Part shown: positions 47,540 through 56,316 of the stretch, piece after piece
Layout of the letters: every line of letters starts with the position of its first letter
Position numbering within the stretch: the first letter of the stretch is position 1
Source: Escherichia coli
GTDB lineage: Bacteria > Pseudomonadota > Gammaproteobacteria > Enterobacterales > Enterobacteriaceae
Direction: 5' to 3' (one strand)
DNA length: 64,000 nucleotides
Assembly (NCBI RefSeq): GCF_001677475.2
Contig: NZ_CP015229.1
Position numbers and translations under genes: made by a program
Notes under the pieces: generated by a model
Told to the model about the DNA's origin: nothing
Seen by the model: the letters and a program-made list of their open reading frames with translations, nothing else
Databases searched by the model: none

Positions 47540-47616
47540 CGGCACGTAGCGCAGCCTGGTAGCGCACCGTCATGGGGTGTCGGGGGTCGGAGGTTCAAAT
47601 CCTCTCGTGCCGACCA
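47540..47616 (+). tRNA. proL: tRNA-Pro (anticodon GGG)
   Basis: CGGCACGTAGCGCAGCCTGGTAGCGCACCGTCATGGGGTGTCGGGGGTCGGAGGTTCAAATCCTCTCGTGCCGACCA; cloverleaf with GGG anticodon; encoded CCA absent. Confidence 0.9.
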
Positions 47617-47618
47617 AA
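47602..47618 (+). repeat. attL core (3' end of tRNA-Pro)
   Basis: CTCTCGTGCCGACCAAA, identical to the copy at 58597-58613. Confidence 0.8.
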
Positions 47619-49395: not shown

Positions 49396-49565
49396 TCACA
49401 ATAGCGGCCCTTTGCGGTCGCTATTTTTTTGCAGAAAGAAAAGCGTAATCAATGAGATAAAAAACAGTGGGTACCGTTTTAAAACGGTGGGTACTGTTTT
49501 TCCCGCCCTGCCCTGTTTTACCGTATTTATCACCGGAATACGCCGGATTAACGAGGTAAAACATA

Positions 49566-49772
49566 GTGGAAACAATCAGAAAAATACTTACCCGTCAGGA
49601 AGTAAAAAATATTCTGCGCATCAAGGCAGACAGTTCGCTACAGGACATGATCAACGCCGGAAAATTCCCGAAAGGCTTCAAAATCGGTCTGCGTCGTGTT
49701 GGCTGGTATGAAGATGAAGTGCTGGCCTGGCTGAAAGAGCGCGAGGAAGAAGCGCGCGGAACGGCTGCGTAA
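49566..49772 (+). CDS. alpA: AlpA-family (HTH_17) transcriptional regulator / excisionase-like protein
   Basis: GTG start with GAGG SD; 68 aa, LTRQEVKNILRIKADSSLQDMINAGKFPKGFKIGLRRVGWYEDEVLAWL matches the AlpA/prophage CP4-57 regulator pattern. Confidence 0.8.
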   Translation: METIRKILTRQEVKNILRIKADSSLQDMINAGKFPKGFKIGLRRVGWYEDEVLAWLKEREEEARGTAA

Positions 49773-50054
49773 TGGTGTGAGGCGTAACGCGATGAACATA
49801 ACAAAAAGCGCCCCGTTGCCGGAGCGCCCTTGCGAACAATTAACCTACTGCGCAAAAAATGAATCAGTGCAGTGGGATTATATCAACCGTGTAGCGAAGC
49901 GCCACAATTGCCGGATAACAGGCAAAACAAAGGCCACCCGCTACGGTGGCCCTTCGACACAAGCTACACGTTATCCCCAACGCATAAGCGCTGATTACTA
50001 TGCCGTGATTACATCCGGTTGGCAATGTGATCAGTGCGCTGGCTTGCTGGTGGG

Positions 50055-50234
50055 CTATTCCTGCTCTTTGGCCTTGCGTCGCTGGCGGCGTTTGATCTCG
50101 CCTTGCATTGACGCAATGATGAATTGTGATGTGCTTTCGCCTGATTCTTTCACTGATTCCATGGCGTTTACTATTTCGTGTGGTACACGAGCCTTTAGAG
50201 CTTGTGATTTTGCGTTTGTTGTACCCGTTGCCAT
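50055..50234 (-). CDS. Ribbon-helix-helix (Arc/CopG-like) DNA-binding protein; candidate island repressor
   Basis: 59 aa MATGTTNAKSQALKARVPHEIVNAMESVKESGESTSQFIIASMQGEIKRRQRRKAKEQE; GAGGA SD 6 nt upstream; terminator-like hairpin GGCCACCCGCTACGGTGGCC at 49932-49952 with T-rich tail on the minus strand. Confidence 0.6.
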   Translation of the reverse strand: MATGTTNAKSQALKARVPHEIVNAMESVKESGESTSQFIIASMQGEIKRRQRRKAKEQE

Positions 50235-50298
50235 TTCTATTCCTCTGTTGGATTGGTGGGGGACAGTATACACAGAAAAAGCACAAATAAAACTCTTA

Positions 50299-50335
50299 AT
50301 GTGGACCACACCTAGAGCATATAGTGGGCCACACC
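50299..50335. promoter_or_regulatory. Two palindromic operator-like sites (TGTGGACCACACCT and GTGGGCCACACCT) in the divergent promoter region
   Basis: GTGG-N-CCAC palindromes 24 bp apart between the RHH gene and the rightward small-gene operon. Confidence 0.45.
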
Positions 50336-50433
50336 TTGAGGTTATCAAGGTGCATAAATGCAAAGCCCCGCAAGTGTCGTTACCACTCGCAGGGCTTCTA
50401 ACCACCAACGATAGCAGAAGTATCGAGGTAGCT

Positions 50434-50640
50434 ATGTTAAATCATACCACACACCCGCAAGGGCGGGACTCGCACAACCTGAATAAATACATCTGGCGTT
50501 TTATCGCTCTGAGCACGGCACAACCGCGCGTGATTACCATTGAGGCCACCAGCGAACAGGAAGCACGTCAGCAATCTCCTGATGGCTGCGTGATGGTATT
50601 CGCCGCCCGTATTCGTCAGGAGGTGCGCCATGTGCAATAA
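50434..50640 (+). CDS. Hypothetical protein (69 aa), first gene of the rightward operon
   Basis: ATG with GAGGT SD; stop overlaps the next start (ATG at 50630). Confidence 0.4.
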   Translation: MLNHTTHPQGRDSHNLNKYIWRFIALSTAQPRVITIEATSEQEARQQSPDGCVMVFAARIRQEVRHVQ

Positions 50641-50866
50641 CACCCGTCCGGACGCAGCCGCCGAGGCTATCAGAACGCTGATGGACGCGCTGATTGATAT
50701 TTCTGTTATCGCAGACAAGGCGCATAAGCACGCCACCAGCGAAACAGAATATGCCGGGGCTTTCGTTCCTCACTCACTGGCTGTTATGCAATTTAGTGCT
50801 GATATGGCGCTGAATGAGGCCAGCAAAATTATCATGGCTGATATGGAGGTGGTGAGCCATGAATAA
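50630..50866 (+). CDS. Hypothetical protein (78 aa)
   Basis: Strong AGGAGG SD 5 nt upstream; translational coupling on both sides. Confidence 0.5.
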   Translation: MCNNTRPDAAAEAIRTLMDALIDISVIADKAHKHATSETEYAGAFVPHSLAVMQFSADMALNEASKIIMADMEVVSHE

Positions 50867-51107
50867 TCATGATTATGCGGGGGCGATTATGCGAAATAAA
50901 CGTGATATTGAAGACCTGGCATTTGAAGCCCTGCACTCTGCGAAAAAGATCAGGGAAGTCGTCAATATGTGGATGAACAGCCTTAGCACCGATAAATCCG
51001 ATAGCAGAGAGGAAATTCTTATTTCTTTGTTGTTAGACCTGGCAAATACACAGGTTTCTCTGACATCTGATATTGAACTCGCCGCTAAAAAGCTGCCTCT
51101 GGAGTAA
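50859..51107 (+). CDS. Hypothetical protein (82 aa)
   Basis: GGAGGTG SD; overlaps the previous stop. Confidence 0.5.
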   Translation: MNNHDYAGAIMRNKRDIEDLAFEALHSAKKIREVVNMWMNSLSTDKSDSREEILISLLLDLANTQVSLTSDIELAAKKLPLE

Positions 51108-51113
51108 AAAAAC

Positions 51114-51413
51114 ATGAAAAAGAAAAATTCTGGCTTTACTGCCAGTGGTCTCCCTCGGCCTGAAATCCGCCCCGGCGATATTTTCCGGGATAACTACGGC
51201 GGCACGGTAACGATTAAAAGTATTGCCGGACGGTGCGTTACTTACCGCCGTGATGGGTACAGCTACGACTGCGTGATGCCTGTTTATCAGTTCCGGCGTG
51301 ATTTTTCACTGATACAGGCCACACCACGCAAACAGCCCACCAGCAACGCAAAGGCACGGGCAAATATTCAGAAAATGAAAAACATGATTAACGCATTCAG
51401 GGGCACAAAATGA
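51114..51413 (+). CDS. Hypothetical protein (99 aa)
   Basis: GGAG SD; stop overlaps the pri start (ATGA). Confidence 0.45.
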   Translation: MKKKNSGFTASGLPRPEIRPGDIFRDNYGGTVTIKSIAGRCVTYRRDGYSYDCVMPVYQFRRDFSLIQATPRKQPTSNAKARANIQKMKNMINAFRGTK

Positions 51414-53215
51414 AACTGGCACCGAACTTAAAAAAACAGCCACACGACAAAATGACCGAAGTCATTATTTTTGCAGGTAGTGATGCCTGGGCGCACGCGA
51501 AACAGTGGCAGGAACAGGACGGGCGACTTGCTGGCGACAACGTGCCACCTGTATGGCTGGGAGACAGCCAGCTTGACGAACTGGCAGACCTGAAAATTAT
51601 CGACGATGGTCGCTATTGTGTCCGGCTGTACAAGGCAGGCCACATCAAGCCGTCAAATATTAATGCCATCGGGCAAAAGCTGGCGGCGGCAGGTGTACGG
51701 GATGCGAGATATTACCCTGAGGGAATGCACAGCCAGAAGCGGGAGGAGTGGCGCGAATATCTGGAGCGTGCGCGCCAGAATCTTTCTGATGGTCTGGTTA
51801 TTCAGCTTCCTGTTAAGAAAAAAACAGAAGACAGCGCCGCACCACTGGCGCTTAACCAGATGGGAGCAAGCCAGCGCGGCGAAGTTCTCCTGGCACGTTA
51901 TGGCGGCGAACTGGCAATTAATGCGGACTCTGACACCGTTCACCACTACAACGGCGTTGTATGGGAGCCGGTACAGGATAAAGAGTTACAGCGGGCTATG
52001 GCACAGATTTTTATTGATGCGGAGATCAGTTATTCGCAGAACGCCATCAAATCGGCGGTCGATACCATGAAGTTAAGTTTGCCCGTAATGGGGAATACCG
52101 CCCGTAACCTGATTGGATTCAGTAACGGTGTTTTTGATACCCGGACAGGCGATTTTCGGGAGCATGACAAAAACGACTGGCTGTTAATTGCCAGTGAATT
52201 ACCGTTCAGCCCGCCAGCAGAGGGGGAAACGCTGGCAACGCATGCGCCGAATTTCTGGAAATGGTTGCGCCGTTCGGTGGCAGAGAATGGCCGTAAAGCG
52301 GATCGCGTACTGGCGGCGTTATTCATGGTGCTGGCGAACCGATACGACTGGCAGTTATTTCTTGAGGTAACGGGGCCGGGTGGAAGCGGTAAAAGCGTAA
52401 TGGCGGAGATTTGCACCATGCTGGCGGGTAAGGCCAACACGGTATCGGCAAGCATGAAGGCGCTGGAAGATGCCAGGGAACGCGCGTTAGTGGTTGGCTT
52501 TTCGCTGATTATCATGCCGGATATGACCCGCTACGCTGGTGATGGTGCAGGTATTAAGGCCATTACAGGCGGTGACAAAGTGGCAATCGACCCGAAACAT
52601 AAAGCTCCCTACTCAACACGCATTCAGGCGGTCGTGCTGGCGGTGAACAATAACGCCATGTCATTCAGTGACCGCAGTGGGGGGATCTCACGTCGTCGGG
52701 TGATATTCAATTTTTCGGAGGTTGTACCGGAGAACGAACGCGACCCCATGCTGGCAGAAAAAATAGAAGGAGAGCTGGCGGTTGTGATTCGCCACCTGCT
52801 TACTCGTTTTTCTGACCAGGACAAAGCTAAACGCCTGCTGTATGAGCAGCAGAAATCAGAAGAAGCTCTGGTGATAAAACGCGAGGGCGATTCGCTGGTG
52901 GACTTCTGCGGCTATCTCATGTCGTCGGTAATGTGTGATGGTCTGTTAGTGGGTAATGCCGAAATTATTCCGTTCAGTCCGCGCAGATATCTTTATCACG
53001 CCTATCTGGCATATATGAGGGCACACGGATTCGGTAAACCTGTAACACTGACGCGCTTCGGTAAAGATATGCCGGGGGCAATGGCGGAATATGGCAGGGA
53101 GTATATGAAACGGAAAACGAAGCACGGTTTGCGTTCAAATGTGACCCTGACAGAGGATTCAGAAGACTGGATGCCATCATGTACATCGGTCACAAATGAC
53201 GATGGAAAAAATTAA
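51410..53215 (+). CDS. Replication protein: primase C-terminal-like / SF3-type helicase P-loop NTPase (satellite Pri-Rep)
   Basis: 601-aa ORF with Walker A TGPGGSGKS and a hydrophobic stretch ending in D (Walker B-like, VVGFSLIIMPD); immediately followed by an iteron-rich origin. Confidence 0.75.
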   Translation: MKLAPNLKKQPHDKMTEVIIFAGSDAWAHAKQWQEQDGRLAGDNVPPVWLGDSQLDELADLKIIDDGRYCVRLYKAGHIKPSNINAIGQKLAAAGVRDARYYPEGMHSQKREEWREYLERARQNLSDGLVIQLPVKKKTEDSAAPLALNQMGASQRGEVLLARYGGELAINADSDTVHHYNGVVWEPVQDKELQRAMAQIFIDAEISYSQNAIKSAVDTMKLSLPVMGNTARNLIGFSNGVFDTRTGDFREHDKNDWLLIASELPFSPPAEGETLATHAPNFWKWLRRSVAENGRKADRVLAALFMVLANRYDWQLFLEVTGPGGSGKSVMAEICTMLAGKANTVSASMKALEDARERALVVGFSLIIMPDMTRYAGDGAGIKAITGGDKVAIDPKHKAPYSTRIQAVVLAVNNNAMSFSDRSGGISRRRVIFNFSEVVPENERDPMLAEKIEGELAVVIRHLLTRFSDQDKAKRLLYEQQKSEEALVIKREGDSLVDFCGYLMSSVMCDGLLVGNAEIIPFSPRRYLYHAYLAYMRAHGFGKPVTLTRFGKDMPGAMAEYGREYMKRKTKHGLRSNVTLTEDSEDWMPSCTSVTNDDGKN

Positions 53216-53227
53216 ACTTATGGAATA

Positions 53228-53459
53228 ACTGTTCACCACTGTTCACCCTGTCATAAATGTCTTTTATATCAGTACATTATAGGGTGAACAGTTATTTGTG
53301 AACTGTTCACCAAACTATTCACTGTTCACCTTTTTGATTATTTATTGAGCTTTAAGGGTGAACAGTGGTGAACAGTTGGTGAATAGTTTTTGTGAAACTG
53401 TTCACCCCTTAACATCATGAATAAAAAGGGAAAATAGCAAAAGGTGAACAGGTGAAGAG
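53228..53459. repeat. Iteron-type replication origin: about 10 copies of ACTGTTCACC / GGTGAACAG in both orientations with AT-rich spacers
   Basis: CACTGTTCACCACTGTTCACC, GGGTGAACAGTT, GTGAACTGTTCACC, TTCACTGTTCACC, GGGTGAACAGTGGTGAACAGTTGGTGAATAG, GAAACTGTTCACC, AAGGTGAACAGGTGAAGAG. Confidence 0.75.
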
Positions 53460-53502
53460 TTAAAATGCAAAAATTTTATTTTATTGCTGTGAGGTAAAGC
53501 CT

Positions 53503-53748
53503 GTGACAACGAAGCACGCAAAAAAACCACAATCACACGCCCTTGATTTGACAGAACACTGGCTGAGGGTGGCGATAAAAATCATCGACCGCAACGCGGG
53601 AGAAGGATACGCGAAAGCGCATCCCGAACTGATAAGCGCATTCATGACCACGGCGGCGGCAAATTTTGCCACACTGACAGAACGGGAGATTGCCGAAGCG
53701 GAACAGGTGACAACCATCAACGTTAAAACCGGAGAGCAGACAGCATGA
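53503..53748 (+). CDS. Hypothetical protein (81 aa)
   Basis: GTG start with GAGGT SD; overlaps the start of the next ORF. Confidence 0.4.
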   Translation: MTTKHAKKPQSHALDLTEHWLRVAIKIIDRNAGEGYAKAHPELISAFMTTAAANFATLTEREIAEAEQVTTINVKTGEQTA

Positions 53749-54044
53749 CAGCACAGATAGCGGCTTGCGGGCGGCTGGTGGCTGACCCGCAGTTAAAGAC
53801 CACCAGCAAAGGGACACAAATGGCGATGGCGAGTATGGCGGTTCCCCTGCCGTGCAGCCAGGCAGATGACGGAACGGCGACGATGTGGTTATCTGTCCTG
53901 GCGTTTGGCAGACAGGCCGACGCACTGGCAAAACACCACAAAGGCGAACTCCTGAGCGTGGCGGGTAACATGCAGGTGAGCCAGTGGACAGGCCAGAACG
54001 GCGCGACCGGGCGGCAAAAAAGGTCAACAGGGCCAGGCCACTGA
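53745..54044 (+). CDS. SSB-like OB-fold single-stranded DNA-binding protein (short form)
   Basis: IAACGRLVADPQLKTT...WLSVLAFGRQADALAKHHKGELLSVAGNMQVSQWTGQNG follows the SSB OB-fold pattern (GxL..DPEL... W..V.xFG ... KG..V.V.G.L....W). Confidence 0.55.
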   Translation: MTAQIAACGRLVADPQLKTTSKGTQMAMASMAVPLPCSQADDGTATMWLSVLAFGRQADALAKHHKGELLSVAGNMQVSQWTGQNGATGRQKRSTGPGH

Positions 54045-55731: not shown

Positions 55732-56115
55732 ATGCAGAATCATTACAATGACCTTAAGCCAATTGCCGAAATGATGTATCCGGATCCAGCAGTAGAGGAA
55801 TTAAAGGCTATTGCTGACAAAATGCGTTTAAGTGAACGCCTTGTTGATATGAATCAGGTGATGGAACTTACTACCCTTAGCCGTCGCACATTGCTAAACC
55901 TTGAGGCTCGCGGAGAGTTCCCCGAACGCGTACAGGTTACGGAAGGGCGTAAGGCCTGGTATTTAAGTGAAGTGATCGACTGGATAAACAATATTCCTCG
56001 AGCTTCTGAATATTGCCGCGTACCTGTCCCAAAAAAGCCAGATGCGGCGCTATGCCTCAAGATTGAGCGTGTACGTCGCAATGCACGGGATGGTCGCTAT
56101 AAGTTGATTGGTTGA
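55732..56115 (+). CDS. AlpA/HTH_17-family DNA-binding protein with N-terminal extension
   Basis: LVDMNQVMELTTLSRRTLLNLEARGEFPERVQVTEGRKAWYLSEVIDWINN matches the AlpA-type HTH pattern; lies directly upstream of cos. Confidence 0.55.
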   Translation: MQNHYNDLKPIAEMMYPDPAVEELKAIADKMRLSERLVDMNQVMELTTLSRRTLLNLEARGEFPERVQVTEGRKAWYLSEVIDWINNIPRASEYCRVPVPKKPDAALCLKIERVRRNARDGRYKLIG

Positions 56116-56140: not shown

Positions 56141-56215
56141 CGGGTCCTTTCCGGCGATCCGGTAGGCTACGGGGCGGCGACCTTGCGGATTTTCGCTATT
56201 TATGAGCCTTTTCGG
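56141..56215 (+). other. Lambda-type cos site (cosQ-cosN plus conserved flank)
   Basis: CGGGTCCTTTCCGGCGATCCGGTAGGCTACG|GGGCGGCGACCT|TGCGGATTTTCGCTATTTATGA; the 12-nt GGGCGGCGACCT (56172-56183) equals the lambda cohesive end as recalled from memory. Confidence 0.75.
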
Positions 56216-56316
56216 GTTGGTGGTGGTGGTTTTGTTTTTCGCTCTATCTCTATGAATAAAAAGGGAAAGATAACACCAACACACCAACCTGAAACCTTAA
56301 CTAAGTGGGGATATTG

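Follow-up and report, generated by a model that had tools for sequence, protein, structure and literature searches.

A short minus-strand gene in a satellite island of Escherichia coli, which specifies a 59-amino-acid protein of the ribbon-helix-helix (RHH) type, very probably, as judged from comparative sequence data, encodes the DNA-binding repressor that keeps the replication and packaging genes of this island silent. The island lies in a 64,000-nucleotide stretch of DNA (contig NZ_CP015229.1), referred to here as the window, and the features of its regulatory region are compiled in Table 1. In the reading that best explains our observations, and to which we assign a probability of about 75%, a dimer of the RHH protein would occupy three operators (O1, O2, and O3), silencing the rightward operon transcribed from the promoter P_R and autoregulating the RHH gene, whose own leftward promoter is designated P_L. 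A preliminary description of this DNA had proposed a candidate master repressor switch; of this proposal, the RHH protein, the operators and the predicted repression of the rightward operon stand, but the reasoning from operator spacing does not.

The island measures 11.0 kb and is inserted at tRNA-Pro(GGG). A 17-bp direct repeat (CTCTCGTGCCGACCAAA) found at 47602-47618 (the 3' end of the tRNA) and at 58597-58613 represents the attL/attR cores that bound it. Its gene order runs from a tyrosine integrase through an AlpA-family regulator, the minus-strand RHH gene, an Icd-like gene, small ORFs, and a DUF4222 gene to a P4-family primase, after which follow an iteron-rich origin-like region and the genes for SSB, the major head protein, a head decoration protein, a second AlpA-like protein, and the small terminase subunit (TerS). 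With its int and alpA genes, primase, packaging genes and att sites, a size in the range of about 10-15 kb, and no lysis or tail genes, the island is a Gram-negative PICI-type satellite. We do not file it as a cf-PICI, since of a full capsid and packaging set, which would include portal, protease, connectors, and terminases, only the major head, decoration, and TerS genes were found (54.3-56.9 kb). Among 5426 complete E. coli genomes, at least 432 carry the RHH/operator module at a coverage of 80% or higher, and 1428 carry it partly.

Several other elements of the island deserve mention in their own right. Directly 3' of the primase gene (53214-53463), at least eight copies of GGTGAACAGT/ACTGTTCACC occur in both orientations and are probably replication-origin iterons. 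The SSB-like ORF (53745-54044) comprises 99 amino acids as compared with about 140 in the related E. coli islands of L001 and CFT073, which may reflect a truncation or a frameshift. Between the decoration and terS genes lies the second AlpA/excisionase-like helix-turn-helix gene (127 amino acids; 55732-56115), and a 13-bp inverted repeat with a 59-nt spacer is found just upstream of terS (56210-56294); the gene may encode a late regulator, and the repeat may be a site for packaging or a promoter. Finally, two adjacent near-palindromic 20-mers, AAAACAGTGGGTACCGTTTT and AAAACGGTGGGTACTGTTTT, are positioned 66-105 nt upstream of alpA (49461-49500) and are candidate sites for AlpA autoactivation or for a helper signal.

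Table 1. Features of the regulatory region of the island (window positions).
Feature	Position	Strand	Basis or remark
AlpA-family regulator gene, convergent with the RHH gene	49566..49772	+	Pfam Phage_AlpA PF05930, E 5.5e-8; PHROG 66
Second terminator-like hairpin downstream of the RHH stop codon	49804-49831	-	
Intrinsic-terminator-like hairpin, ~100 nt past the RHH stop codon	49929..49954	-	
RHH repressor gene (candidate), YlcI/YnfO family, 59 aa	50055..50234	-	Translation MATGTTNAKSQALKARVPHEIVNAMESVKESGESTSQFIIASMQGEIKRRQRRKAKEQE
Shine-Dalgarno sequence AGAGGAA of the RHH gene	50240..50246	-	Read from sequence; 5 nt before the ATG at 50234
Operator O3, GTGGGGGACAG, degenerate copy	50256..50266		At about +1 of the leftward promoter P_L
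Candidate -10 (TATACT) of P_L, the RHH gene promoter	50265..50270	-	Putative promoter function
Candidate -35 of P_R, TTAATG in the window	50296..50301	+	TTGACG/TTGAAG in relatives
Operator O1, GTGGACCACAC	50301..50311		In the spacer of P_R
Candidate -10 (TATAGT) of P_R	50320..50325	+	18-bp spacer from the -35; arrangement kept in relatives; putative function
Operator O2, GTGGGCCACAC	50324..50334		Overlaps -10/+1 of P_R
Hairpin A (CACCTTGA/TCAAGGTG), predicted 5' end of the P_R transcript	50332..50352	+	Perfect 8-bp inverted repeat
Hairpin B, conserved, folds better on the minus strand	50363..50397	-	Candidate 3' stem-loop/terminator of an antisense RNA
Near-invariant motif next to hairpin B, TCTAACCAC (minus strand: GUGGUUAGA)	50397..50405		Alignments
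Hairpin C (CGATA...TATCG), 5' of the Icd-like Shine-Dalgarno sequence GAGG	50409..50428	+	Read from sequence
Icd-like (host cell division inhibitor-like) gene, first of the rightward operon	50434..50640	+	NCBIfam NF033153, E 9.9e-20; PGAP in relatives
Candidate -10 (TATGAT), leftward antisense promoter whose transcript would cross the Icd-like ribosome site	50441..50446	-	Putative function
Rest of the P_R operon: overlapping small ORFs, DUF4222 gene, P4-family primase	50630..53215	+	Primase TIGR01613

The 59-codon minus-strand ORF with a GAGGA Shine-Dalgarno sequence that had been noted before is borne out by its translation and by the AGAGGAA element 5 nt from the ATG. An extension of this ORF to 117 amino acids, starting from a TTG at 50408, finds no support since every homologue begins with MAT and the extension would run across operators that are non-coding and conserved. 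The terminator-like hairpin that had been ascribed to the gene has two counterparts on the minus strand 3' of the stop codon, but both are located outside the interval that had been described; the hairpin at 50363-50397 is not the terminator of the RHH gene, because it is positioned upstream of it. A tandem 14-nt repeat (49985-50012; TAAGCGCTGATTAC, TATGCCGTGATTAC) is present in the 3' untranslated region of the gene, between stop codon and terminator.

Residues 9-50 of the protein match the NCBIfam model NF041551 (YlcI/YnfO) at 67.4 bits (cutoff 30, E 7.9e-19), and the identical protein WP_000190587.1 is named YlcI/YnfO by PGAP as well. Its homologues constitute a small and tight family, with 91 representatives at E values up to 0.001 among 1.84 billion proteins and 55 clusters at 90% identity; nearly all of the organisms given for them and for their loci are Enterobacterales. 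A literature search covering YlcI/YnfO, DUF3950, RHH proteins in connection with PICIs, and the EcCICFT073 repressor returned no description of a function for the protein or its family. The N-terminal MATG..N.KS and C-terminal EIKRRQR segments, neither of which belongs to the DNA-reading surface, are invariant across genera, and the C-terminus forms a single, highly basic helix.

Assignment to the RHH superfamily required structural modeling. A Pfam search with the protein yielded nothing relevant, sequence and profile searches against PDB chains gave no relevant match and no significant match to solved RHH proteins, and a Foldseek comparison of the monomer model with the PDB returned nothing significant. 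The RHH fold was recognizable only once a linked dimer had been modeled, with dimerization forced by an artificial linker. This computed model consists of β-α-α subunits that form an intertwined dimer with a two-stranded antiparallel β-sheet, in line with the β-strand/helix/helix layout previously read from the sequence, and the best structural matches of the modeled dimer include Arc. An hhalign comparison with Arc, a weak match at 19% probability, places A12, K14, and R16 in register with Arc residues Q9, N11, and R13, which are the base-contacting residues of Arc. As neither a curated RHH profile nor a solved RHH protein is matched (Pfam, PDB, hhalign to Arc), membership in the superfamily rests on the fold and not on sequence. 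Base-specific recognition through the β-sheet, a further property of the superfamily, is indicated by the co-variation of the operator centers with residues 12-14 in 23 specificity classes. The protein and its sites would represent an RHH repressor-operator switch of a known type in a new family, and the protein is not a sequence member of a curated RHH family.

The intergenic region had been described as holding two GTGG-N-CCAC palindromes 24 bp apart. Both are present (GTGGACCAC at 50301-50309; GTGGGCCAC at 50324-50332), but their starts are 23 bp apart and a third site exists. Each palindrome is the core of one copy of a longer, 22-nt direct repeat (82% identity; GTGGRCCACACCTWGAG...) and part of an 11-bp GTG-N5-CAC site; across related loci the sites take the general form (G/C)TG-N5-CA(C/G). 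The 11-mer GTGGRCCACAC occurs in exactly two copies in the 64-kb window, at 50301 and 50324; by our own arithmetic, chance would give about 0.06 exact matches in the 128 kb of both strands, so that the pair is not accidental.

A scan of one genome per species provided 78 related loci, whose upstream regions were aligned by the distance from the start codon of the RHH gene. In 55 distinct loci, sites are found at set offsets from the ATG, namely 21 nt (O3), 66 nt (O1), and 88-101 nt (O2), and the N5 center of O3 matches those of O1 and O2 of the same locus. When the β-strands were compared on residues 11-15, 23 variants could be distinguished across these 55 loci. The N5 centers agree at 4.55 of five positions within a locus, at 4.65 between loci with the same β-strand, and at 1.87 between loci with different β-strands. 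In a permutation test with one representative for each of the 23 classes, the observed score of 201 (97.6 ± 6.9 under permutation) was reached in none of 20,000 permutations, a P-value that overstates independence since the loci are phylogenetically related. The three separate sites change in concert in each lineage, and this makes a common reader hard to avoid, an argument that is independent of kinship. Protein columns 14, 13, and 12 are the best predictors of the operator class (adjusted mutual information 0.63, 0.53, and 0.51, respectively), and within each locus of about 12 kb the class-specific 11-mer is present almost only at O1, O2, and O3. Both the co-variation and the restriction of the sites were computed directly from these loci. 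Residues 12 and 14, together with 13, would read the variable N5 center, while the constant GTG/CAC flanks would probably be read by invariant residues such as R16.

The proposal that the repeats are operators of the RHH protein is thus upheld by comparative data, as their centers co-vary with the β-strand in 23 specificity classes, and we consider this co-variation strong comparative evidence that the protein would bind these sites, repress the operon, and autoregulate its own gene. One might instead suppose that some other protein of the island binds the repeats (AlpA, the integrase or an excisionase at arm sites, or the primase at iterons) and that the RHH protein serves elsewhere, for example in packaging. 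The YlcI/YnfO family is without known function, and its K-12 member ylcI (prophage DLP12; NC_000913.3 580251-580445) is located beside a lambda-type cos site at the end of the late region, divergent from nohD. This alternative is exceedingly improbable in our view: it is the RHH β-strand, and best of all its residues 12-14, with which the repeat centers co-vary, for the primase there is a separate and different set of iterons at 53214-53463, and a motif search comparing the alpA promoter region with the P_R region revealed none that is shared. A fourth operator-like site inside the RHH gene (50178-50188, RVPH codons) was discarded, as its synonymous positions are unconserved within the same specificity class. 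Co-resident islands do not significantly avoid sharing a specificity class (2 of 29 pairs were of the same class, with 2.7 expected).

The claim that the operator spacing is that expected for an RHH dimer-of-dimers had to be abandoned. Some classes have O1 and O2 22-26 bp apart, others 34-36 bp, and several carry O2 in the opposite orientation to O1; fixed helical phasing is therefore not conserved. Nor does the protein resemble an Mnt-type tetramer, which has a C-terminal coiled coil for tetramerization and a single operator whose two half-sites are one helical turn apart, given its basic single C-terminal helix and sites that lie 22-36 bp apart in variable phase and orientation.

The operators are embedded in conserved promoter-like elements. 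In 66 distinct upstream regions, AGTATAC (TATACT on the RHH gene strand) is conserved at 77-97% per position at offsets 30-36 and abuts O3, and TTGA is conserved at 88-92% at offsets 61-64, with O1 following directly after TTGAnG. TTGAnG and a TATAGT-like element bracket O1, and the latter either overlaps O2 or sits just upstream of it. From this consensus and conservation we infer the promoters P_L, predicted to start near 50258, and P_R, predicted to start near 50331-50333, and likewise the antisense promoter considered below; a generic sigma-70 scan of the window called none of the three. That the RHH gene is divergent from the operon reaching from the Icd-like gene to the primase had been recognized correctly, and O1 and O2 lie on the conserved P_R elements as the operators of a repressor would. 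Occupancy of O1 and O2 would exclude RNA polymerase from P_R and thereby keep the satellite quiescent, and O3, at the start site of P_L, would provide negative autoregulation of the RHH gene. In the class to which the window belongs, two to three of the five central bases of O3 differ from those of O1 and O2, and autoregulation may therefore be weak. The -35 element of P_R is a weak TTAATG in the window and reads TTGACG both in EcCICFT073 and in L001, an E. coli island with an identical repressor, and O1 of the window differs by one base from that of these two islands; the P_R copy of the window may, judging from these substitutions, be weakened.

An activating role of the RHH protein, either at P_L from O1 and O2 or through remodeling of the P_R spacer, is another reading. 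O1 and O2 lie at about -48 and -71 from the presumed P_L start, and Mnt of phage P22 stimulates its own promoter (indirectly at Pmnt) while it represses Pant. We rate activation as very unlikely, because the P_R spacer of 17-18 bp is not overlong, and the location of O2 over -10/+1 or just downstream is a typical repressing position.

Repression of P_R would affect more than the Icd-like gene. Overlapping start and stop codons link the genes from the Icd-like gene to that of the primase, and no plus-strand terminator-like site was found before the end of the primase gene. P_R would hence drive the Icd-like gene, the small ORFs, the DUF4222 gene, and the primase gene, and probably the downstream capsid and packaging genes as well. 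A plus-strand ORF of 287 codons (49777-50640) crosses the RHH gene and the operators in antisense and finishes as the Icd-like gene; it is almost certainly spurious. Such antisense ORFs may be why older annotations missed the RHH gene and why older island maps look unidirectional.

The leader of the operon contains three hairpins. Hairpin A is found in many relatives, although not in all, and most relatives possess an equivalent of the short hairpin C, with the Shine-Dalgarno sequence of the Icd-like gene in the loop. Hairpin B has a strand preference, as computed directly from the alignments: its minus-strand fold is the more stable one in 51 of 53 loci (mean -22.9 versus -17.3 kcal/mol), and 94.4% of the cells are paired on the minus strand versus 81.6% on the plus strand, because many positions that form G-U pairs on the minus strand are A-C on the plus strand. 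Compensatory changes are present in 11 of its 15 pairs. The flanking motif TCTAACCAC is conserved across genera in non-coding DNA and resembles a DnaA box in only seven of nine positions. A minus-strand TAnnnT hexamer occupies a fixed place just inside the first rightward ORF in all 52 distinct loci, and the codon that supplies its second base has T as third base in each of these 52, though six different amino acids are encoded. Hairpin B and the candidate -10 element upstream of it on the minus strand suggest a candidate cis-antisense RNA over the ribosome site of the Icd-like gene. It would start near the Icd-like start codon, end at hairpin B, and block the Icd-like gene; a transcript from about 50434 to about 50352 (~80 nt) would span the Icd-like ribosome site, and its sequence folds at -42.3 kcal/mol (z -6.6). 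Rfam searches of the intergenic region and the island (E up to 1; E up to 10) revealed no family and no C4 or isrK match; miRNA-like matches outside the intergenic region correspond to long inverted repeats, and the spurious ones at 53214-53463 are accounted for by the iterons.

The position of the antisense element, exactly over the ribosome site of the Icd-like gene, invites a more local interpretation, in which the RHH protein and the antisense RNA would form a safety or addiction module for a toxic Icd-like gene and have no hold on the induction state of the island, with the replication genes served by a promoter of their own. The first gene of the P_R operon is indeed that of an Icd-like cell-division inhibitor, and a promoter-like site is present on the plus strand at 50838-50867. 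We nevertheless hold such a restricted role to be distinctly unlikely in view of the overlapping start and stop codons that connect the Icd-like gene with the primase gene, the lack of a plus-strand terminator-like site between them, and the synteny of the RHH/operator module with int and primase across genera.

A more speculative thought concerns the invariant, arginine-rich C-terminal helix, whose EIKRRQRRK sequence is reminiscent of RNA-binding peptides of the N/Tat type. The RHH protein could be bifunctional, with the variable β-sheet reading island-specific operators and the C-terminal helix binding the likewise invariant leader or antisense RNA element composed of hairpin B and GUGGUUAGA, an idea that we consider a long shot. 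If it were true, a single protein of 59 amino acids would control the Icd-like gene and the operon at the RNA level in concert with its repression of transcription, and the family would embody a natural, swappable recognition code with more than 20 orthogonal repressor-operator pairs.

How the repressor might be relieved can be discussed with the aid of EcCICFT073. We located this island by its capsid (c1499) and decoration (c1500) genes beside phoQ; its layout matches that of the island in the window, and it encodes the identical protein WP_000190587.1 (E. coli CFT073, NC_004431.1 1380473-1380652). Its regulatory region is near-identical, with O1 and O2 both reading GTGGGCCACAC, a consensus -35 (TTGACG), and O3 as in the window. 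The locus tag of the RHH gene (C_RS30120) is out of series with those of its neighbors, which suggests that the gene was apparently a late addition to the CFT073 annotation. An extra small minus-strand ORF (1380242-1380415), absent from the window, is present downstream of the RHH gene in CFT073.

The paper that introduced Gram-negative PICIs describes them as transcribed in one direction, calls their global repressor "unclear," and leaves open why their control differs from that of Gram-positive PICIs (PMC6092414). EcCICFT073, the only one of these islands for which helper induction and packaging have been demonstrated experimentally, is induced via helper-dependent expression of AlpA: the alpA promoter becomes more active in the presence of helper phages, the gene that follows alpA needs AlpA as activator for its expression, and overexpression of alpA alone induces the island without a helper, so that the published genetics name AlpA, and not a repressor, as the key regulator (PMC6092414). 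Since an island with the same RHH protein is induced via AlpA, relief of the repressor may be indirect. We infer that induction proceeds most probably through AlpA: alpA precedes the operon on the same strand, convergent with the RHH gene, and AlpA-dependent transcripts could extend across the RHH gene in antisense and on into the operon. A terminator scan of the plus strand gave no convincing candidate in the interval from alpA to the RHH gene, and this, together with the gene arrangement, makes AlpA-driven read-through a candidate route.

Alternatively, as the preliminary description had proposed, a helper factor could directly inactivate the RHH protein, in the manner known for Stl of the SaPIs, with AlpA acting elsewhere, for example in excision. 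Such direct derepression, which we regard as unlikely, would suit a layout analogous to the divergent master-repressor arrangement of Gram-positive PICIs, and the helper inducer of EcCICFT073 has not yet been identified (PMC6092414). It fits poorly with the increase in alpA promoter activity caused by helpers and with the induction of EcCICFT073 by alpA overexpression alone (PMC6092414), and the invariant MATG..N.KS and EIKRRQR surfaces are unlike those expected from an arms race with diverse anti-repressors. A tblastn search of 50,697 GenBank phage records detected no match to the close subfamily of the RHH protein, and hence no sign of a helper-encoded close homologue.

Among known systems, the immI region of phage P22 contains the RHH repressors Mnt and Arc, the divergent promoters Pant and Pmnt, and the sar antisense RNA. 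By analogy, the island would share with it a small RHH repressor gene divergent from the silenced operon, operators overlapping the target promoter, and a likely antisense RNA opposite the leader of the first gene; Arc is, moreover, among the best structural matches, and its β-strand register is alike. The differences are nevertheless substantial: there is no detectable sequence relationship to Mnt or Arc, the island has three separate 11-bp sites and not one tetramer-bound operator, the model of its protein has no Mnt-like C-terminal coiled coil and the invariant basic helix EIKRRQR instead, and its predicted target is a satellite replication and packaging operon while that of P22 is an antirepressor. 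In plasmid pMV158, the RHH protein CopG and the antisense RNAII control repB; CopG is co-transcribed with its target and binds a single pseudo-symmetric element. Both systems would place a replication operon under dual control, with an RHH protein acting on the promoter and a countertranscript covering a downstream gene's ribosome site, but the island regulator is divergent and its antisense RNA would cover the Icd-like gene and not an initiator.

The Stl (Rpr) repressors of SaPIs and other PICIs are similar in being encoded beside int, divergent from the replication and packaging operon, and the RHH protein is, like them, predicted to silence its satellite (PMC6092414). Stl, however, is a large helix-turn-helix protein of unrelated fold; derepression by the helper is a feature of Stl and hypothetical for the island, which in addition possesses the AlpA activator that Gram-positive PICIs lack. 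With the immI region of P1 (c4 RNA-icd-ant) and the CI RNA of P4, the island shares an Icd-like gene at the head of the controlled operon and a small structured leader RNA (PMC10111431), but the C4 and CI RNAs derive from the operon strand, whereas hairpin B folds better on the opposite strand. The YlcI/YnfO (DUF3950) proteins of the lambdoid prophages DLP12 and Qin belong to the same NCBIfam family as the island protein and resemble it in layout (a short basic N-terminus, R-x-P, a helix, a G-S/N turn, and a second helix), yet they are very distant from it (hhalign probability 2%). The ylcI sequence also fits the β-helix-helix pattern.

Taken at this strength, the RHH gene is a concrete candidate repressor, with mapped operators, for the Gram-negative satellites, a class without a reported repressor, and, as the gene is identical in the model island EcCICFT073, it offers a candidate answer to the question of what represses these satellites. 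It also provides a first functional hypothesis for the YlcI/YnfO (DUF3950) family. The 23 natural pairs of β-strand and operator form a compact data set for RHH-DNA recognition and may serve as a source of orthogonal repressors.
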